Positions 1 through 5,702 of a stretch of DNA of 64,000 nt are shown here, piece after piece. Source of the stretch: Candidatus Parcubacteria bacterium (GTDB taxonomy: Bacteria > Patescibacteriota > Minisyncoccia > Phycocordibacterales > JBAYGS01); NCBI GenBank assembly GCA_039795895.1, contig JBDKKW010000001.1, positions 18,837 to 82,836 of the forward strand, given 5' to 3'. How positions within the stretch are numbered: the first letter of the stretch is position 1; every line of letters begins with the position of its first letter. A program made the position numbers and the translations under genes. The notes below the pieces were generated by a model. It saw nothing but the letters and a program-made list of their open reading frames with translations. It was not told the DNA's origin and did not search any database.

Positions 1-466
1 TCTCCTCTAAGTTATCCCCAGTTTTTTTATACGGCGTCCTATTCTTATTAATTAAATCTTTTTCTTTATTCTTGTTCGTGGTTCCCGTAGACCGATCTGA
101 CCGGTCTGTATGACCGATGTGAAAGTCTGACTGACCGATCTCGTTTGAGTTCGGTCTGTATGACCGGTCTAGTTTCAACAGGTAATACACATTGTGGTAG
201 CGTCGTCGGCTCTTGCGGATGATCTCCAGTTTGATCAGCTGGCGGATTCCTCTTTGCACGCTCGAGATGCTTGCGCCGATCTTGTCGGCCATAGTCTTGT
301 GCGACGGAAAACAAAAACCCTCCTGGTTGGCGTACTCAGCCAGGCAGTTATAAATAGCGATGCCGATCGGCCCGATCGTGCTTCCATACTCGTCGAGGAG
401 GACTTTGCTGATCCAATACCAGTCTCCCTTGCGAAGATCCCTAATTGTTATTTTGTCATCCGACAT
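1..466 (-). CDS. HTH-domain protein (HTH_36/replication-initiator-like), 3'-partial (runs off left edge); alternative start ATG at 574
   Basis: Manual translation of the minus strand from ATG 466 gives MSDDKITIRDLRKGDWYWISKVLLDEYGSTIGPIGIAIYNCLAEYANQEGFCFPSHKTMADKIGASISSVQRGIRQLIKLEIIRKSRRRY..., with no stop before position 1. It is absent from the ORF track because it has no in-window stop. The plus ORF 194..532 is its codon-aligned antisense. Confidence 0.55.
   Translation of the reverse strand, partial: MSDDKITIRDLRKGDWYWISKVLLDEYGSTIGPIGIAIYNCLAEYANQEGFCFPSHKTMADKIGASISSVQRGIRQLIKLEIIRKSRRRYHNVYYLLKLDRSYRPNSNEIGQSDFHIGHTDRSDRSTGTTNKNKEKDLINKNRTPYKKTGDNLEE
91..171. repeat. Cluster of GACCGRTCT / GGTCTGTATGACCG direct and palindromic repeats (iteron- or operator-like)
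   Basis: gaccgatct at 91-99 and 133-141; gaccggtct at 100-108 and 163-171; the 14-mer ggtctgtatgaccg at 103-116 and 153-166. GACCGGTC is itself palindromic. Confidence 0.6.
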
Positions 467-667
467 ACGCGAAAAATAAAGGTGTGCGGGTCGACCAAAA
501 CCCAGACCGCACCTTATCGCTCCTCTCAATGAGGATGGTATCCATTGAGGGGAGAGTAAAGTTTGGTCTACCATTCCTTTGATTTCGGAAGCGCACGATC
601 GATGTTGTCGAGTGCTCTACAGAAGTCGCGTCGTATATTCGGATTTTCAAGTTCCCGAATGGTGAAG

Positions 668-946
668 TTATTCAAGAGACTCTCCCTCCGTGCGAGGAGT
701 TCTTTCCTCGTCGGGGGCTTCCTCGTCATCCGTTTCCATATCGTCCGGATAAGTCTCTTGATCAGGATTTTCGTTCTCATGTTTTTTAATGTGATCCATG
801 TGATCCAAAAGCATGAACGCCATGCGCTTAAAGCCAGCATGGACTTTCCAGACTTCTTGTCGGGTTGGCTCCCGGCCGAGTACGTCCGAGAGTGCATTGC
901 GAGTAAGCTCCACGAGAGCTTCCTCGTCTTTCGTCGGCTTGGACAT
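668..946 (-). CDS. Hypothetical acidic protein (92 aa), co-oriented with the cro-like gene
   Basis: ORF MSKPTKDEEALVELTRNALSD... The overlapping ORFs 563..988(+) and 568..963(-) have junk-like, very basic composition. Confidence 0.4.
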   Translation of the reverse strand: MSKPTKDEEALVELTRNALSDVLGREPTRQEVWKVHAGFKRMAFMLLDHMDHIKKHENENPDQETYPDDMETDDEEAPDEERTPRTEGESLE

Positions 947-1008
947 GCGATGGTTTGGTTCATAAGAGTGACCTCACACTTTTATTGACCGCATCACGCC
1001 CTGCTGGC

Positions 1009-1215
1009 TCAAGGCAAGAAAATCTCCTCGACTCTAACCCCGAGAGCCAAGGCGATCCGCTGGGCTGTTTCGAGATTCGGACGCTTTCGTCCGGTCTCGT
1101 ACCTGCTGATCGCCGTGTTGTGCCTAAAACCAAGAATTCGGGCGAGCTTGTATTGCGTCAGCCCTTTCTTGATTCTCAGGTCTCGGAGTCGTATGTTTGT
1201 TGGTGTTTTATTCAT
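1009..1215 (-). CDS. XRE-family HTH regulator (Cro-like)
   Basis: 68 aa with GLTQYKLARILGFRHNTAISRYETG, a classic XRE helix-turn-helix. Divergent from the CI-like gene. Confidence 0.8.
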   Translation of the reverse strand: MNKTPTNIRLRDLRIKKGLTQYKLARILGFRHNTAISRYETGRKRPNLETAQRIALALGVRVEEIFLP

Positions 1216-1245
1216 ATGGTTAACTTTTAGACCTCTACAGTCATA

Positions 1246-1361
1246 TTAAGCAATTTTGCTTACGAGGTCAATATATTTAGGTGTGGATAAAGCAAAGTTG
1301 CTTAATGTTTACTAATTTGCTATAGTTAAGCAATCAAGGTCGTAGTTAATCGATTAAGCAA
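1246..1361. promoter_or_regulatory. Operator/promoter region of a cro/CI-type switch with repeated TTAAGCAA half-sites
   Basis: Palindromes TTAAGCAATTTTGCTTA (1246-1262) and TAAAGCAAAGTTGCTTAA (1288-1305), plus TTAAGCAA half-sites at 1326-1333 and 1354-1361 and the perfect palindrome TTAATCGATTAA (1345-1356). They lie between divergent HTH genes. Confidence 0.6.
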
Positions 1362-1372
1362 ACCCAACGAAT

Positions 1373-2089
1373 ATGTCATTTGGTTCATATCTAAAAAAAC
1401 AAAGGGAATCGAATAAGTGGACTATCAAAGAGATGGCAGAGCGGCTCGGCTTTTCGTCGAGCTACATCAGCCAGCTGGAAAACGGGACCCGCATTCCGTC
1501 CCAGAAACAGCTCGGCACTTTCGCAAAGGCCTACCAGCTCCCGGAGGAGGATGTCCGGAAGCAGTGGACTGAGGGAAAGATTCAACAGGTCAGCATGGAG
1601 GGCAATTATAAATTTGGCATGACCGATGCTGGTGAGAAGCGTGTACACGAAGCCGCCAGCAAACTCGAAGAAGGACTTGAGGAATTGAAAAAAAGTTTTT
1701 CGAGTGACGGTCATTTCAAAATGCCGGTGCTCGTAGCGATCCCGATTGATGATCTCGACGGTCATCTGACTCGAACGAGCGATTTTGTTTTGCTTCCTAA
1801 AGATGGCGTCATGGAGGATCATCGAGTGTTCGGACTTCGTGTGTCCGATCTCACGCTCCCCGATGCCGGCATTCTTTCCGGAGACTTCGTCATCCTTGAT
1901 GCCGATCTCACTCCAAAGAATGGCGACATCGTGATCATGAGGACACCGGATGGTTTGGTAATGACTTATTACCAAGAGCGAGGCGACCACCTCGAGCTCC
2001 GGCCGGAGAAGGAAGGCTTCAAAAAGACCTACCATCTCAAGGAGAGCAAGATGATCGGTCGGCTGGTGTATCACGTGAAGAAGTATTAA
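1373..2089 (+). CDS. CI/LexA-like repressor: N-terminal XRE HTH plus C-terminal S24 peptidase domain
   Basis: N-term WTIKEMAERLGFSSSYISQLENGTR; C-term ...DGVMEDHRVFGLRVSDLTLPDAGILSGDFVILDADLTPKNGDIVIM..RPEKEGFKK resembles an S24 autopeptidase (assigned from overall C-terminal similarity only; no Ser/Lys catalytic dyad or G-D-S-M motif was positively identified). Confidence 0.8.
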   Translation: MSFGSYLKKQRESNKWTIKEMAERLGFSSSYISQLENGTRIPSQKQLGTFAKAYQLPEEDVRKQWTEGKIQQVSMEGNYKFGMTDAGEKRVHEAASKLEEGLEELKKSFSSDGHFKMPVLVAIPIDDLDGHLTRTSDFVLLPKDGVMEDHRVFGLRVSDLTLPDAGILSGDFVILDADLTPKNGDIVIMRTPDGLVMTYYQERGDHLELRPEKEGFKKTYHLKESKMIGRLVYHVKKY

Positions 2090-2093
2090 CAAA

Positions 2094-2118
2094 CAGGGCT
2101 CCCTTCGGGGAGCCCTGA
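2094..2118 (+). terminator. Hairpin CAGGGCTCCCcttcGGGGAGCCCTG after the CI-like gene
   Basis: Perfect 10-bp stem with a cuucgg-type loop, followed by an AT-rich tract containing three AGTAAA repeats (2163-2205). Confidence 0.5.
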
Positions 2119-2216
2119 GCTCATTTTAAGGCACACCAGTTCAAGGAGTTGTAAAGAATTAGTAAAGAAAAAGTAAATTAATTATTAAAAATAAGTAAAC
2201 AATTTATAAAGGATTT

Positions 2217-3752
2217 ATGAACTACTTAGTCTACGGCCGTGTCTCTACCTCTCGTCAGGCCGAACGAGAACTGAGTATTCCGGCGCAGGTTAAAGCATGT
2301 CAGAAGTACGGCATGGATCACCACTGGAATCTCGCGCCGGATGGCATCTACGAAGAGAAGGGAGAGTCTGCTCGTACCACCGAGCGTCCCCAGCTTCAGA
2401 AAATGCTTCACCGTGCAAAGACCGATCCCAAGGTCGATGCGATCTTGATGCACAAACTGGATCGTATGTGTCGCAACGTCGCGGACTATGCCGCGATTAA
2501 AATGATGCTCAAAAAGCACGATGTCCGATTGATCTCGGTAGTCGAGCAATTCGACGAGTCTTTCTCCGGAGAGCTCGTTGAGAACATCATGTCGTCGATC
2601 GCGCAGTGGACGTCCCAGAACATCAGCTGGGAGGTCAGGAAGGGTCTCAAAGAGGCCGTAGAGCGTGGCCGGTTCCCCGGATACGCACCGCTCGGGTATC
2701 TGAACGATAAGAAGACCAAGTCTCTTATCGTCGACAATATCCGCGCTCCGTACATTAAGTTGGCATTTGAACTCTACGCCACCGGTAAATATTCGTATGA
2801 GTCTTTGTCTGCTGATCTTAATAAGCGAGGTCTGAAGACGCGAAGTGGTAAACAGATCAGTCGAAAAGCTACCGAGCACTTCTTGGCAAACACGATCTAC
2901 TACGGGCTTATAAAAACTCGATCGGCTACCAATCAGGCAAACTTTCCACCTCTCATCACCAAGAAGCTCTTTGACGACGTTCAAGAGATTATCCAACAGC
3001 ACAATCACTACGCCGATCGCACACGCAAACACTCGTATCCAATGGCCGGCTTTATGCGATGTGGCGACTGCGGATCAATGCTCTGCGGCCAGATGCAAAA
3101 GAACCATCTCTACTATTCTTGCAGTCATCGCAAAGACCCGAAGTGCATGGAAAAGAAGTACATGCGCTGGGAGGACGTCGAGGCACAAGTGGCAGTCATG
3201 CTCGCTCGTATACAGTTGCCGGACAAGTTCAAAAAGGTGCTCGATGCCTACTTCCAGTACTTCGCCAAGGAGCGTCTGGATCAGGAGGATAAGGAGCGCA
3301 AAAGTCTGAAACAGGAGCTTATTCGCATCCAGCAACAGATCCGCAATATCGTCGTGGATCGCTCAAAACGCATCATAGACGCAGAGGTCTTTATAAAGAT
3401 TCAGGACGAGCTTTTGCGCGAGAAAGAGATGTATCAGGGTCGCTTGGGTGAGATGGAGGGCAAGTCCGATAAGTTCGTCCAGAAGTTCAACGAGCTATTG
3501 GATTTCACCGATCATGCAGACCGAGTATTTCAGACCGGTGGCTTCCATCAAAAGCGAATAATTATGAAGCTTTGCTTCGAGGGATTCGTCGTCAAAAATC
3601 AAAAACTGACGCCCATCTGGTCGCCAGTCTTTGATGTCCTCATGGACTTACAAGTTTCCAAGATCGAACCTCCTGAGCCCCCTAGGGGGTCAAAAAACGT
3701 TGCAAACACTAAGGTTCAAACTTGGAAATCTGGCGGAGGAAGTGGGATTTGA
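2217..3752 (+). CDS. Large serine recombinase (integrase)
   Basis: N-terminal resolvase catalytic motif YGRVSTSRQ. It is 511 aa and has a Cys cluster CGDCGSMLCG...YYSCSH.. consistent with a zinc ribbon. Its 3' end overlaps the 3' end of tRNA-Ser. Confidence 0.85.
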   Translation: MNYLVYGRVSTSRQAERELSIPAQVKACQKYGMDHHWNLAPDGIYEEKGESARTTERPQLQKMLHRAKTDPKVDAILMHKLDRMCRNVADYAAIKMMLKKHDVRLISVVEQFDESFSGELVENIMSSIAQWTSQNISWEVRKGLKEAVERGRFPGYAPLGYLNDKKTKSLIVDNIRAPYIKLAFELYATGKYSYESLSADLNKRGLKTRSGKQISRKATEHFLANTIYYGLIKTRSATNQANFPPLITKKLFDDVQEIIQQHNHYADRTRKHSYPMAGFMRCGDCGSMLCGQMQKNHLYYSCSHRKDPKCMEKKYMRWEDVEAQVAVMLARIQLPDKFKKVLDAYFQYFAKERLDQEDKERKSLKQELIRIQQQIRNIVVDRSKRIIDAEVFIKIQDELLREKEMYQGRLGEMEGKSDKFVQKFNELLDFTDHADRVFQTGGFHQKRIIMKLCFEGFVVKNQKLTPIWSPVFDVLMDLQVSKIEPPEPPRGSKNVANTKVQTWKSGGGSGI

Positions 3753-3820
3753 ACCCACGAGGAGCTTTCACCCCTGCCGCTTTTCGAGAGCGGTGATTTC
3801 AACCACTCACCCATTCCTCC
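3731..3820 (-). tRNA. tRNA-Ser (anticodon CGA), class II long variable arm, CCA encoded
   Basis: Reverse complement GGAGGAATGGGTGAGTGGTTGAAATCACCGCTCTCGAAAAGCGG...GGGTTCAAATCCCACTTCCTCCGCCA; anticodon loop CTCGAAA. Confidence 0.8.
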
Positions 3821-3897: not shown

Positions 3898-3969
3898 GGC
3901 CCTATCGTCTAACGGTTAGGACACGGCCTTTTCAAGGCTGTAATCGGGGTTCGATTCCCCGTAGGGTCA
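3898..3969 (+). tRNA. tRNA-Glu (anticodon TTC), no CCA encoded
   Basis: GGCCCTATCGTCTAACGGTTAGGACACGGCCTTTTCAAGGCTGTAATCGGGGTTCGATTCCCCGTAGGGTCA; anticodon loop TTTTCAA. Confidence 0.8.
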
Positions 3970-4005
3970 CAGCTTAGAGCACAGCGATAAAAGCTGTGAC
4001 CCTAA
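3961..4005 (+). terminator. Hairpin GGGTCACAGCTT..AAGCTGTGACCC that includes the tRNA-Glu 3' end
   Basis: 12-bp perfect inverted repeat directly abutting the tRNA. No U-tract, so it could instead be an att-associated structure. Confidence 0.4.
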
Positions 4006-4099
4006 GTAGAGCGGGAGCGCTCTACGTCGGGGAATCGAAGCCTGTTTGAGTATTTTTTCAAGTGTAGTAACACGCAGAAAAAATCCAAACAGGGTACTG

Positions 4100-4216
4100 A
4101 CCGTGTAACGGTCGAGTCCCGTAGGGTTACCTCCGTGACCGAGAATGTATGCAAGGTTCCCTGTAGGAAAATTATAGCTGAACCCATTACCATGTCGTTT
4201 TCCGTAGAGTTATCAT
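4100..4216. repeat. Degenerate direct repeats of the tRNA-Glu 3' end (att-site remnants)
   Basis: cggtcgagtcccgtagggttacc (4108-4130), ggttccctgtagg (4154-4166) and ttccgtagagtta (4199-4211) all resemble tRNA-Glu ggggttcgattccccgtagggtca. Confidence 0.5.
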
Positions 4217-4226
4217 TTTACCCACA

Positions 4227-4793
4227 TTGTTTAAAATAAGAGCAAATTTTGTAGGAAGTTTTAAGGTTGGAGATAACATCAATCACAATCTGAGGGTCTT
4301 AACTTTACTGTATAGTTATTTTGAAAATGTGGATAATAATAAAAAGCGGTTACTTTGTAAACCAATCATATTGATAATCATCTCCATTATTGAAGCGGTA
4401 CTGCATGATTTTCACGGACGAATAAGAGCTTACACGAAAGAAGGGGTAAGTACTTTAGCAGAAGATGTAATTAATTATATAAGAGGTAAACATATTGATG
4501 AGTTAGAAAAATACATCATGAGTGCCAAAAAACACGATTTCTTTGATATGAATGATACAAAGTTCTACGATACATTAGATAGTTTTAGAAAATTGAGAAA
4601 CAGAATCCATATTCAAAATACAAAAAACGATTTTGAATCCGATGAATATGTGGCGTTTAATGAAAAACGTAAGGTTGTTGCAGAAAAGCTCCTCGAAAAA
4701 ACCTTAGTGGTGATGAGTGAAAAGTATTCAAGAAATTTTAATGGATATGTACAAGACTTTGAATTGCCATGGGACAAACACTTCCATGATTAG
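4227..4793 (+). CDS. Hypothetical protein in an AT-rich islet, HEPN-like (R-x6-H motif RKLRNRIH); possible Abi/toxin-type protein
   Basis: 188-aa ORF with TTG start. GC is far below the flanks. The HEPN call rests only on the Rx4-6H motif and size. Confidence 0.4.
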   Translation: MFKIRANFVGSFKVGDNINHNLRVLTLLYSYFENVDNNKKRLLCKPIILIIISIIEAVLHDFHGRIRAYTKEGVSTLAEDVINYIRGKHIDELEKYIMSAKKHDFFDMNDTKFYDTLDSFRKLRNRIHIQNTKNDFESDEYVAFNEKRKVVAEKLLEKTLVVMSEKYSRNFNGYVQDFELPWDKHFHD

Positions 4794-4911
4794 GGTGAAC
4801 TATTGTAATTTTGTATTATTTCGTAGTAATTCTGTGTTTATTGGGGCAGAATAGGTTGGTGTGTGTGGTTAGGGAGGTGAATGTGTTAGAATTAGTAGAA
4901 TAGTAATATTC

Positions 4912-5559
4912 TTGAAGTGTATGAATTTTATAAACGATGAATGGACTATAGAAAAGATCAAGGTAGGATTTGAACGTTTTAAGGCTCAAAATGGTAGACT
5001 TCCGACTGGACCAGAAATTGACCAATTAGATTATCTTCCATCAGCTCGACAAATTCAGAGGAAGTTTGGAGGTCTCGAAAAATTACGTTCAGAGCTTGGT
5101 TATGAATATACCCATTTTGGAAAAGGTAAATATAGAAGTGAAATAGCAAGTCGAATAAATGTTAAAGGTCGCCAGGTAGAAATTTCTCTAGAAAAGATTT
5201 TAAAAGAGAAGTTTCATGAAGTTTTTGTTCATACTGAAAAAGTTTTTGATGATTCAAAGAATAGAGTCGATTTTTATGTGTATTGTCCCGATGGAAATTT
5301 TGGTATTGATGTCTTTTATACAGGGACGATGAGGGATTTACAGAAAAATGTAAATATAAAGATTGATAAATATCAGAATTTTACCCACCGATTATATCTA
5401 GTAGTCGCAAATAATGATTTTGAGCAACAAGAACTTAACGGATATATGGTTTCAAAAAAGAAAGCTTTACCGCAAGATAGTACAATTGTGACACTTGATA
5501 CACTTTTTGAAATTATGAAAAATAAAAGAAGTTATCCCGATCCATTTATTACTAAATAG
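4912..5559 (+). CDS. Nuclease-like protein: N-terminal homing-endonuclease-associated (HNH_repeat-like) domain plus C-terminal restriction-endonuclease-like region
   Basis: WTIEKIKVGFERFKAQNGRLPTGPEIDQLDYLPSARQIQRKFGGLEKLRSELGY matches the W..E...GR.PT..E...LPS...I.RKFGG pattern. The C-terminal half reads VDFYVYCPDGNFGIDVFY. AT-rich. Confidence 0.5.
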   Translation: MKCMNFINDEWTIEKIKVGFERFKAQNGRLPTGPEIDQLDYLPSARQIQRKFGGLEKLRSELGYEYTHFGKGKYRSEIASRINVKGRQVEISLEKILKEKFHEVFVHTEKVFDDSKNRVDFYVYCPDGNFGIDVFYTGTMRDLQKNVNIKIDKYQNFTHRLYLVVANNDFEQQELNGYMVSKKKALPQDSTIVTLDTLFEIMKNKRSYPDPFITK

Positions 5560-5702
5560 TTATAAATATCTCTTCAACTTCACAAAAAAGTTAGATGAAA
5601 GTTCTTGTTAATGAATAGAAAAATACTAGTGACCGAAAGCGTACTCTCGATTCCTTGTAAGGTCACAATTAAAAAACCACCGGATTTCTCCGATGGTTGT
5701 GT

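Follow-up and report, generated by a model that had tools for sequence, protein, structure and literature searches.

A serine integrase gene that spans its own attachment site in a phage family of Patescibacteria, and a probable module of this family at a tRNA-Ser gene

The first 3,820 nucleotides of the window, which is the whole analysed stretch of 64,000 nucleotides, were investigated together with related loci. We concluded, with a probability of about 0.8, that window 1-3820 represents the lysogeny and early-replication module adjoining attR in a temperate tailed phage, or in what remains of one, integrated in the chromosome of a candidate-phyla-radiation bacterium (Patescibacteria). The phage family of this module is large and undescribed, and its serine integrase gene spans its own attachment site.

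Gene content and a complete relative

The order given in the initial annotation (Rep, acidic ORF, Cro, CI and a 511-aa large serine recombinase, LSR) was recovered in full, with every gene at its expected position. The features were as follows.

1-466, minus strand: rep, lambda-O-like replication initiator with a winged HTH; 5' part, 155 of 180 codons (translation, HTH_36, PHROG)
668-946, minus strand: conserved acidic ORF of 92 aa with a very acidic C-terminal tail (ORF calling; also called in L001 and L152)
1009-1215, minus strand: Cro-like XRE HTH regulator that heads the leftward early operon (HTH_3, 6.9e-15; PHROG transcriptional regulator/repressor)
1373-2089, plus strand: CI-like repressor with an N-terminal HTH and a LexA/S24-fold C-terminal domain (HTH_3, 8.5e-14; Peptidase_S24, 1.1e-8)
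2094-2117, plus strand: strong hairpin separating cI from the LSR gene, resembling a terminator on either strand (10 pairs, 8 of them G-C, T-rich tail)
2217-3752, plus strand: LSR, prophage form, 511 aa (Resolvase, Recombinase and Zn_ribbon_recom domains; phrog_95 integrase, 1.8e-93)
3731-3820, minus strand: tRNA-Ser(CGA), the integration target (ARAGORN)

All five backbone genes were intact ORFs with lengths typical of the family. The acidic ORF also occurred in relatives, and it had no match in Pfam, PHROG or PADLOC. Downstream of rep, a zinc-ribbon ORF of 96-101 aa was conserved in the family, without a match to a protein family.

The LSR showed the domains of its class. An N-terminal resolvase catalytic domain (PF00239, 4.7e-30, residues 5-152) was accompanied by a recombinase domain (PF07508, 1.4e-14) and a zinc ribbon (PF13408, 1.1e-7). 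In a PDB search, residues 4-131 matched the catalytic domain of TP901-1 integrase (7.8e-13), and residues 70-419 matched SPbeta integrase (2.2e-5). S10 is the predicted nucleophile, as read from the YGRVSTSRQ motif. The identity of the LSR to every integrase in 50,697 deposited phage records was 29% or lower. No recombination directionality factor was identified for the element.

The phage-like nature proposed for the element was supported by a relative. In the IMG/VR contig UViG_3300025154_002045, the matching module terminates a prophage of ~37.8 kb that encodes terminase, portal, capsid, tail and lysis functions. Matches were obtained for TerS (1.6e-8), TerL (6.7e-20), the major head protein (1.2e-31), a tail fibre (7.7e-16) and an Amidase_2 endolysin (1e-26), and a portal gene was also present. 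This tailed-phage gene set lay between the att sites.

The tRNA junction and the attachment sites

As previously described, the final 22 nt of the LSR gene, which ends at 3752, overlap tRNA-Ser(CGA), which begins at 3731. We collected 123 LSR/tRNA junctions from relatives, and the overlap was conserved in 105, with various tRNAs and various flanks. This was consistent with the proposed integration at the tRNA-Ser 3' end. The conserved junctions comprised 95 tRNA-Ser genes (gct 30, gga 27, cga 24, tga 14) and 10 tRNA-Asp(gtc) genes. LSR 3' ends that were 100% identical were found beside different tRNAs (L007 at Ser-gct and L089 at Asp; also L019 and L102), which meant that the element is mobile. 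The identity between L007 and L089 was 100% across 7.6 kb.

When the junctions of about 50 loci were aligned, the element sequence was conserved up to TGGCGG and was tRNA-specific beyond it. The sites were defined as follows.

3713-3736, unstranded: phage half of attR, with P arm GGTTCAAACTTGGAAATC at 3713-3730 and core TGGCGG at 3731-3736 (junction, attP and attL alignments)
P' arm pattern: GCGATTTCC[GC]GAAGTTTGAACC

Read in reverse complement, the core gives CCGCCA, the 3' end of the tRNA, which comprises C71, C72, the discriminator G73 and CCA. The central GG at 3735-3736 matches C71-C72, and the symmetry point falls there. Unoccupied tRNA-Ser genes in relatives were variable past CTCCG. 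The last 4-6 nt of tRNA-Ser(CGA) come from the phage, and the tRNA stays intact because the phage re-supplies GCCA.

Of the att sites, the window contains attR alone. A second att site had been anticipated as a direct repeat of the tRNA-Ser 3' end. The second site, attL, was found in three relatives (L005, L169 and L170), but it is not a long direct repeat. It consists of a core of 5-6 bp, TG(G)CGG, and, after it, the P arm of the LSR side in inverted orientation, as expected for a serine integrase. Both arms covaried between lineages (AAAGTT/AAAGTT; CTAACTT..GACATC on each arm). The joined site, attP, was found on one metagenome contig of 853 nt (L173), in which the LSR 3' end is fused to the phage left end. 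It read GGTTCAAAGTTGGAAATC-TGGCGGTGGC-GATTTCCGGAACTTTGAACC, with the inner part GGAAATC-TGGCGGTGGC-GATTTCC. In the relatives, attP was a short imperfect palindrome, and attL and attR had only the small core in common. In the proposed reaction, the LSR would recombine a near-palindromic attP of ~50 bp with the 3' end of the tRNA gene. The arms GGTTCAAAsTTGGAAATC and GATTTCCGGAAsTTTGAACC would flank the centre TGGCGGTGGC. Any tRNA ending in CC-G-(CCA) would be eligible, which in practice would mean four tRNA-Ser isoacceptors and tRNA-Asp.

The attP site falls inside the LSR reading frame, and integration therefore swaps the native last 45-48 residues for a tail read from the antisense tRNA. In the window LSR, the residues past ...WKSG are read in this way. 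The tail is GGSGI*, and the TGA stop lies in the T-loop of the tRNA. The native extension of 45-48 aa was conserved and ended at one shared stop in each of the three attL copies. The other two frames were closed, there was no in-frame start, and the frame was kept over a 3-codon indel. The codon differences comprised 9 that were synonymous-only and 14 that were non-synonymous. We tentatively consider, as a rather improbable idea, that the full-length LSR of the free phage and the tRNA-tailed LSR of the prophage could differ in direction, activity or stability. If true, the directionality of a serine integrase would be under a built-in control exerted by integration itself, perhaps with no classical directionality factor, and such control would operate in a phage family spread across many lineages of Patescibacteria.

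The integrases of phiC31, Bxb1, TP901-1, A118 and SPbeta resemble the window LSR in their three domains (resolvase, recombinase and zinc ribbon with coiled coil). These phages also have short dyad-symmetric attP and attB sites, no long att repeat and an int gene at the prophage end, next to att. In model serine integrases, attP lies outside int, and the targets are protein-coding or intergenic. Here, in contrast to those phages, the extreme 3' end of several different tRNA genes is targeted, and attP lies inside the integrase ORF, so that integration alters the C-terminus. Mycobacteriophages such as BPs reportedly show integration-dependent immunity, with attP in the repressor gene and a tyrosine recombinase as integrase. 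As in those phages, an intragenic attP gives a prophage protein isoform unlike that of the free phage. However, the remodelled protein here is the integrase itself, and any functional effect is putative. SSV1-type archaeal proviruses also have attP in the integrase ORF, a tRNA target and an integrase altered on integration. Those archaeal viruses use tyrosine recombinases, and their gene is divided into two large parts, whereas here a bacterial serine integrase is involved and the exchange is limited to the last 45-48 codons. In the literature, a review on archaeal tyrosine recombinases (PMC8371274) was the only place where the wording "within the integrase gene" was found.

Regulatory switch and candidate replication origin

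The region between cro and cI contained the following features. The pairing of proteins with sites, the use of promoters and the induction signal were inferred.

1243-1271, minus strand: leftward promoter P(cro), TTGACC, 17 nt, TAATAT (promoter scan)
1245-1262, unstranded: operator O1, ATTAAGCAATTTTGCTTA
1287-1306, unstranded: operator O2, ATAAAGCAAAGTTGCTTAAT, overlapping the -35 of the rightward promoter
1298-1326, plus strand: candidate rightward promoter P(cI), TTGCTT, 17 nt, TATAGT (read by eye from the letters; block conserved in relatives)
1354-1361, plus strand: single half-site TTAAGCAA preceding the cI start, conserved in relatives

Four or more half-sites arranged as palindromes had been reported here. 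The four exact copies of TTAAGCAA were confirmed; four of the five window copies lie in 1246-1361, and 2.7 are expected in the whole 64 kb. The palindromic arrangement held only in part, since just two palindromes, O1 and O2, were present. The remaining half-site at 1326-1333 was single and was not conserved in relatives. The family consensus of O1 is a perfect palindrome, TTAAGCAA-TT-TTGCTTAA. O1 occupies the spacer of P(cro) and overlaps its -10. Both P(cro) hexamers were kept across 69 distinct intergenic sequences, as were the operators. These sequences showed the layout of a lambdoid switch: divergent HTH genes with palindromic operators, of predicted binding, over divergent promoters. 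P(cI) was treated as a candidate because it was absent from the consensus promoter scan list. The two divergent promoters would be governed via O1 and O2. CI at O1, in the spacer of P(cro), would silence the leftward operon, which would comprise cro, the acidic ORF, rep and the zinc-ribbon ORF.

The assignment of CI as an HTH protein with an S24 domain was correct at the level of the domain match, but not as an active peptidase, because the Ser/Lys dyad was absent. In the alignment with LexA, S119 was replaced by T161 and K156 by T198. Among 73 distinct CI sequences, Lys was never found at the K156 position, and the S119 position was T, P, S, Q, D or A. The LexA-fold domain also had no Ala-Gly site. 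RecA-stimulated self-cleavage is therefore unlikely. Judged by these residues, the S24 domain is catalytically dead, and a lambda-style RecA-cleavage step is unlikely in the switch.

The rep ORF runs 25 codons past the left edge of the window. Its full length was taken from L001, which was 100% identical to window 1-2055. It matched HTH_36 (3.6e-10) and the PHROG annotation "replication initiation O-like" (9e-14 to 2e-10), and the ORF was 177-192 aa in 59 of 68 relatives. Inside rep, the following features were located.

21-86: AT-rich stretch adjoining the iteron cluster
87-171, unstranded: iteron cluster, candidate replication origin inside rep (four GACCGRTCT, one copy with 1 mismatch, a 15-mer twice)

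The GACCGRTCT cluster proved to be real, with four of the five window copies in 90-170 (0.76 expected; five copies were reached in 0 of 100 shuffles). The repeat previously given as a 14-mer was present, but it was actually a 15-mer, CGGTCTGTATGACCG, at 102-116 and 152-166. We rejected the suggestion that the repeat-bearing tail of rep is non-coding; it is conserved coding sequence among the relatives. The iteron core YCGGTC occurred in 3-5 copies in 53 of 58 distinct rep genes. These repeats were read in two frames of rep (DRS and IGQ/IGH), which indicated that the repeat is maintained as DNA, irrespective of the encoded residues. The iterons and the AT-rich stretch lie in the initiator gene, downstream of the DNA-binding domain, and Rep would bind the iterons inside its own gene, as at the lambda ori in gene O.

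The overall arrangement was similar to that of lambda. The lambda immunity region has divergent cI/cro-type genes and palindromic operators over two promoters, and ori-lambda in gene O combines a winged-HTH N-terminus with iterons and an AT-rich stretch in the initiator coding sequence. However, the CI described here has neither the Ser/Lys dyad nor the Ala-Gly site, two palindromes and one half-site replace two sets of three operators, and the integrase is of the serine rather than the tyrosine type. A P-like helicase loader was not identified in the element.

State of the copy and alternative readings

The left edge of the window cuts rep, and 3 kb more could be retrieved leftward; the evidence for the central prophage reading comes from relatives. 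Neither the window nor the further 3 kb obtained on its left contained phage late genes; in these 3 kb, L001 carries accessory-type genes that encode an IetA-like AAA ATPase and membrane or secreted proteins. In L152, which is the closest relative (92% nucleotide identity), 9 kb held only a restriction-modification cassette followed by genes of transporter type, without late genes. No P' arm was found from window -3040 to the right end of the window, so the left end was unseen. There were degraded copies among the relatives (L005 and L148), and the window copy may therefore be defective. In L005, the stretch from attL to the backbone retains no more than Dam, ParB, fragments of TerS (38 aa) and of a tail protein, and the left-end gene; Dam was also present in L019. 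The LSR is N-terminally truncated in L148 and L150. It is quite possible, with a probability of about one in three, that the window copy is a defective prophage remnant, a fixed island and not an inducible phage, in which the late genes, and perhaps attL as well, were deleted and the backbone and accessory genes were kept. However, the five backbone genes are intact, and the operators, promoters and iterons fit the family consensus. In addition, the late genes of the intact relative start ~14 kb left of the backbone, which is past the DNA recovered here.

The conserved block of ~4.4 kb (zinc-ribbon ORF, rep, acidic ORF, cro, cI and LSR) might instead be an autonomous integrative plasmid-like or satellite element resembling a tycheposon or PICI, with the DNA further left being unrelated island material. 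We regard this as very improbable. The nucleotide similarity to about 50 loci does end at window -650 to -690, the left flanks beyond the block are mosaic, GGC(G) microhomology is present at each of its ends, and tandem accretion at one tRNA site was seen in L150. However, no inverted P-arm copy was found at the left edge of the block. In L169, L170 and L005, the true P' arm is found on the far side of the late and lysis genes and covaries with P, and the attP contig connects the LSR end to a holin-like gene, not to the left edge of the block. The variable genes also move with the backbone, as in the 7.6 kb shared at 100% by L007 and L089. The block is a phage lysogeny and early module, not a small autonomous element. 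A non-mobile host recombinase resident in fixed synteny beside tRNA-Ser has almost no probability. The recombinase adjoins tRNA-Ser in nearly all relatives, but the tRNA varies (four Ser anticodons and Asp) and the right flanks are unrelated. This reading was refuted by the varied targets, the identical LSR ends at different tRNAs and the existing attP junction. The initial annotation had named two points against its own proposal, a lack of a second att site and phage genes, and conserved synteny with fixed cargo. Both were contradicted in the relatives, where a second att site and phage genes are present and the cargo is variable.

A tycheposon- or PICI-like satellite was rejected as a classification, as a small element bounded by its own att sites was not found, and in the intact relative a full phage lies between the att sites. 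Among Prochlorococcus tycheposons and PICI-like elements, a minority use LSRs (10.1101/2020.12.28.424599). Tycheposons resemble the present element in their tRNA targets, streamlined genomes, variable cargo and tandem or remnant islands at tRNA genes (10.1101/2020.12.28.424599). They have no full set of virion genes, whereas the intact members of the window's phage family have a full morphogenesis and lysis module.

Gene content and prophage character of the window end

The left end of the window and the adjoining tRNA-Glu gene were annotated as listed.

Features of window 1-3820 and its surroundings (negative coordinates lie left of the window edge)
about -255 to -560, minus strand: ORF of 96-101 aa (2310-2615, plus strand, in contig L001)
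from 466 past the left window edge, minus strand: rep-like ORF; HTH_36 3.6e-10; PHROG replication-initiator/'O-like' matches down to 9e-14
668-946, minus strand: acidic ORF, 92 aa (ORF call)
1009-1215, minus strand: XRE/Cro-like gene, divergent from cI
1373-2089, plus strand: CI-like gene, HTH and Peptidase_S24 (domain matches)
2094-2117: strong hairpin between cI and the LSR gene
2217-3752, plus strand: large serine recombinase (LSR), 511 aa; Resolvase, Recombinase, Zn_ribbon_recom; phrog_95 integrase 1.8e-93
3731-3820, minus strand: tRNA-Ser(cga) (ARAGORN)
3898-3970, plus strand: tRNA-Glu(ttc) (ARAGORN)

The gene order of the initial annotation (rep, acidic ORF, Cro, divergent CI and 511-aa LSR) was recovered by ORF calls, domain matches and PHROG matches, each gene lying where it had been placed. 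The ARAGORN coordinates also bore out that the last 22 nt of the LSR gene overlap the 3' end of the minus-strand tRNA-Ser(CGA). In an exact look-up, neither the LSR nor the CI of the window was on record, and Cro and the acidic ORF matched only L001 and L152. The conserved ORF of 96-101 aa was found 3' of rep in all relatives; it contained two CPHC motifs, and its C-terminal segment was hydrophobic. It is a possible candidate for an accessory or directionality factor. The recorded gene call at this site of L001 was instead a 60-aa ORF on the other strand.

The Logan contig L001 was 100% identical to window 1-2055 and added 3040 nt leftward. In the case of L152, the closest relative, the identity was 92.4% from -688 to 3759. 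The similarity to all relatives ended at about -650 to -690, and the sequences left of this point were mosaic among relatives. From this block end and the mosaic DNA, the conserved 4.4-kb block was first read as a small integrative plasmid. The block end itself (-650 to -688), which bears a GCAAAGCTCGCCAC...GGCAAAAAGGGGCT motif and shows GGC(G) microhomology, was taken as attL. This attL was rejected because the true P' arm, the inverted copy of the LSR-proximal arm (P) at the far phage end, lay elsewhere in relatives, and the plasmid reading was dropped given this arm and the late genes of relatives. It was overturned by leftward genes common to loci at different tRNAs, by a complete prophage and by phage genes in two further relatives. 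L007 and L089 were identical over 7.6 kb and had leftward genes in common, though they were located at different tRNAs. The complete prophage, UViG_3300025154_002045, measured ~37.8 kb between att ends. From the tRNA leftward, it carried the backbone (rep to LSR), a ~10-kb accessory stretch on the plus strand (tyrosine recombinase, PD-(D/E)XK, Ppl-like PHP-ATPase, methylases and Fic) and then the late genes. The late region contained Dam and ParB, TerS (1.6e-8) and TerL (6.7e-20), a weakly matching portal, a major head protein (1.2e-31), a tail fibre (7.7e-16) and a 938-aa tail protein, along with a LysM protein, an endolysin of the Amidase_2 type (1e-26) and small membrane proteins. Relative L005 kept Dam, ParB and the last phage gene together with fragments of TerS and of a tail protein, and L019 had Dam at the contig edge. 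These results supported the initial interpretation that window 1-3820 is a prophage end, intact or remnant. The 190-aa protein next to the window had a 94% homologue, whose gene was located with a PD-(D/E)XK/ResIII/methylase cluster on one side and the backbone on the other. A leftward walk through the homologues of this protein and of the AAA protein showed island-type genes and nothing more.

The window element is of an ordinary kind, a prophage end, with three unusual features and a wide reach in an under-studied bacterial group. A large part of bacterial diversity belongs to the Patescibacteria (candidate phyla radiation), and what is known of their phages comes almost entirely from automated provirus calling. 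In one example, 20% of groundwater MAGs had provirus calls (PMC12960796). Full-text literature searches gave general reports of Patescibacteria proviruses and no description of this prophage family. The closest analogues were serine-integrase phages, the lambda immunity region and ori, SSV-type int partition, integration-dependent immunity and tycheposons.

Host range and attachment sites

A scan with one genome per species gave 69 LSR loci, ~50 of them at 61-92% protein identity. All of these were in Patescibacteria-type MAGs (Parcu-/Paceibacteria, Yonath-, Vogel-, Kaiser-, Nomura-, Azam-, Magasanik- and Komeilibacteria). For the lysogeny module, LSR identity was 75-95% across MAGs labelled Yonath-, Vogel-, Kaiser-, Nomura-, Azam-, Magasanikbacteria and others. 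The metagenome scan added 160 relatives, of which 80 were kept. The LSR was at most 29% identical to any integrase among 50,697 deposited phage records. Many assemblies broke within the LSR gene or the backbone (L010, L016, L032-L036, L042-L046, L048, L050, L056, L057 and many metagenome loci). Such breaks are expected for a sequence that is multi-copy or strain-variable, so MAG-based counts of the family are underestimates.

A minus-strand tRNA-Ser adjoined the LSR end at 95 of 123 junctions (gct 30, gga 27, cga 24 and tga 14), and tRNA-Asp(gtc) adjoined it at 10. The other 18 were mostly contig ends. In the junction alignment, the element was conserved as far as ...GGTTCAAAsTTGGAAATC-TGGCGG, beyond which lay whichever tRNA was present. 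A resident host gene in fixed synteny with tRNA-Ser and without variable cargo was considered as the alternative to a mobile LSR. LSR 3' ends that were 100% identical over 800 nt stood beside different tRNAs: L083 (tga) and L042/L146 (gct), L019 (gga) and L102 (gct), and L007 (Ser-gct) and L089 (Asp). These identical ends, together with unrelated right flanks, excluded the resident gene, and the cargo was variable among relatives. L148 and L150 shared 7 kb of identical sequence, in which lay the remnant of an LSR truncated at the N-terminus. From 7074 onward, L150 carried another element between this remnant and tRNA-Ser; it encoded a 595-aa serine recombinase of its own and had TGGCGG on both sides. 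This indicated that several serine-recombinase elements share one tRNA end and accumulate in tandem.

The second attachment site had been expected as a direct repeat of the tRNA-Ser 3' end. The 3 kb left of the window gave only chance matches of 8-11 nt. Another attachment site was indeed present in L005, in L169 (the far end of the UViG prophage) and in L170 (a second IMG/VR prophage), as an inverted copy of the P arm and not as a direct tRNA repeat. There, attL followed host-specific DNA and read (T)G(G)CGG(A/T)GGCGAT(T/G)TCC(G/C)GAA(G/C)TT(T/A)GAACC. This P' arm contained two extra bases, and an ungapped search for the inverted P arm gave no match because of this 2-nt insertion; a gapped pattern later succeeded. 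A P' arm of the family would read GCGATTTCC[GC]GAAGTTTGAACC, with TG(G)CGG before it and, after it, an ...IDKIIRxLR...VPAFAxKVY* ORF and a gene for a 71-72-aa membrane protein. Both arms covaried between lineages: proximal and distal arms carried AAAGTT...GAAATC in L005 and CTAACTT...GACATC in the UViG prophage, and the L170 arm was the AAACTT variant, same as that of the window. The attR of the window was located at 3713-3736. The pattern search detected no P' arm from -3040 to the window's right end, so the left end of the element lies further out. The left junction of L152 did not align with the family attL, and when the left flanks of all loci were compared by BLAST with the right flanks in search of empty sites, the one match was irrelevant. 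For the window element, the predicted attP junction is ...GGTTCAAACTTGGAAATCTGGCGGTGGCGATTTCC..., and an empty attB would consist of the host DNA on the left followed directly by TGGCGGAGGAAGTGGG.

IMG/VR contained no match for a free-phage attP, and the P' pattern was present only in the two known prophage contigs. A joined attP, AAGGTTCAAAGTTGGAAATC-TGGCGGTGGC-GATTTCCGGAACTTTGAACC, was borne by L173, an 853-nt ENA contig in which the phage left-end gene is fused to the LSR 3' end. Positions 1-17 and 837-853 of L173 were GTTTCCCAGTCACGATA and its reverse complement, which we take to be a random-amplification (SISPA) primer. The primer-like sequence at both ends indicated that L173 is a single amplified fragment, and it is a hint, though no proof, that virus particles had been prepared. 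The sequence common to attP and tRNA was TGGCGG, the reverse complement of CCGCCA, and the attP symmetry was centred on GG, which corresponds to C71-C72 of the tRNA. This meant that the phage re-supplies G73 and the CCA end. It explained why unoccupied tRNA-Ser genes were variable after CTCCG and occupied ones were all CTCCGCCA, and why Ser and Asp targets were all CC-G-CCA at this end. The target rule is a tRNA ending in CC-G-CCA, and attP, attL and attR of the family are now defined. With its attP known and its target present in every group member, this serine integrase could serve as the basis of an integration vector for hosts that are very hard to manipulate genetically.

In the three attL copies and L173, the LSR frame ran on for 45-48 codons past the core (GGDFRNFEPV...IDKIIRQLR..YK.NP..F.VPAFA.KVY*). 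The stop was the same in all copies, the other two frames were closed, and the extension was without an in-frame ATG, GTG or TTG. A three-codon indel kept the frame, and L005 and L170 differed by 9 synonymous and 14 non-synonymous codons. P0124, the product called on L173, covered 100% of a chimeric query of LSR C-terminus plus extension. The extension peptide was also fused to unrelated host-derived N-termini in attL gene calls. The conserved in-frame extension and P0124 indicate that the free phage encodes a longer LSR. Integration replaces the LSR tail with antisense-tRNA codons, giving ...WKSG-GGSGI* in the window. The stop of the window LSR comes from the TTCAAAT T-loop, and relatives had longer tails, with LSR products of 520-568 aa. 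The extension matched no Pfam family, and the AlphaFold2 model of the P0124 fragment was uninformative at low confidence (mean pLDDT 43). Serine-integrase genes do not usually run across the phage attP, and this arrangement is relevant to the control of directionality. Full-text literature searches gave no serine integrase with an ORF across attP, and in them the phrase 'within the integrase gene' came up only for archaeal tyrosine recombinases.

Lysogeny switch and replication gene

The cro-cI spacer was conserved across 69 distinct sequences. Half-site palindromes had been proposed here, and four of the five window copies of TTAAGCAA did cluster within 1246-1361. Two palindromes, the putative operators O1 and O2, were recognised. 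O1, with the family consensus TTAAGCAA-TT-TTGCTTAA, lay between -35 TTGACC and -10 TAATAT of a leftward promoter that was also found by a consensus scan. O2, ATAAGCAA-AG-TTGCTTAA, lay over -35 TTGCTT of a candidate rightward promoter, TTGCTT-17-TATAGT. Upstream of cI lay a conserved half-site that stood single. A perfect DnaA-box-like 9-mer, TGTGGATAA, was observed at 1282-1290, overlapping the left half of O2. It was conserved in the family (TGTGGAT-AAGCAA) and may simply be part of the operator.

The description of CI as an HTH plus S24 peptidase was correct for the domains, but the LexA-type Ser/Lys dyad was absent. In the alignment of the C-terminal domain to LexA, S119 corresponded to T161 and K156 to T198. 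Among 73 distinct CI relatives, the Lys position was never Lys and the Ser position was variable. CI is therefore probably not RecA-cleavable, and the best interpretation of its S24 domain is that of a module for oligomerisation.

The repeats noted in the first 180 nt were real and clustered. GACCGRTCT had four of its five window copies in 90-170 (0.76 copies expected per 64 kb; no shuffle reached five), and a 15-mer at 102-116 recurred at 152-166. The accompanying proposal of a non-coding rep tail was contradicted. The rep ORF was 177-192 aa in 59 of 68 relatives, and the protein was conserved through the repeats and beyond. The DNA core YCGGTC recurred 3-5 times in two different reading frames, beside a Lys/Asn-rich (AT-rich) linker. 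These results show that the repeats are iterons embedded in coding sequence. The iterons of lambda ori lie within gene O, and rep resembles it in this respect.

Variable gene content and the neighbouring tRNA-Glu

The early operon and the late genes were separated by a variable plus-strand block of defence-type genes, at 4-17 kb to the left of the LSR (L003, L007, L013, L027, L151/L159, L152 and L153). It contained type I, II and III restriction-modification, Vsr/Z1/NgoFVII/Dcm, PD-(D/E)XK, AbiE, Fic, zeta-like genes and a Ppl-like PHP-ATPase (5.6e-38). An IetA-like AAA ATPase (2.7e-20) adjoined the window's own backbone copy. The interval from early to late genes is a hot spot at which the defence systems vary (restriction-modification, Ppl-like, AbiE and IetA-like). 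At the point where the leftward gene content starts varying, a conserved motif of ~90 nt was found (L001 2330-2420, window about -690 to -600). It contained GGCAAA repeats and GCAAAGCTCGCCACAGGGGCAAACAAATGGCAAAAAGGGGCT and ended with a bidirectional terminator hairpin. In L109, two copies (2237-2300 and 3249-3310) lay on either side of a tyrosine recombinase gene, and this pairing suggests a cassette-exchange site.

To the right of the prophage end, the tRNA-Glu 3' end TCGATTCCCCGTAGGGTCACA (3951-3971) was repeated at 5647-5667 (18/21), with another tRNA-Glu-like fragment near 4103-4131. The repeats bracketed a segment of 35% GC with two ORFs (4227-4793 and 4912-5559), for which neither a significant Pfam match nor a PADLOC match was obtained. 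Window 3951-5667 resembles what is left of another integrative island, at tRNA-Glu, in which case the back-to-back tRNA-Ser and tRNA-Glu would each have foreign DNA at the 3' side.
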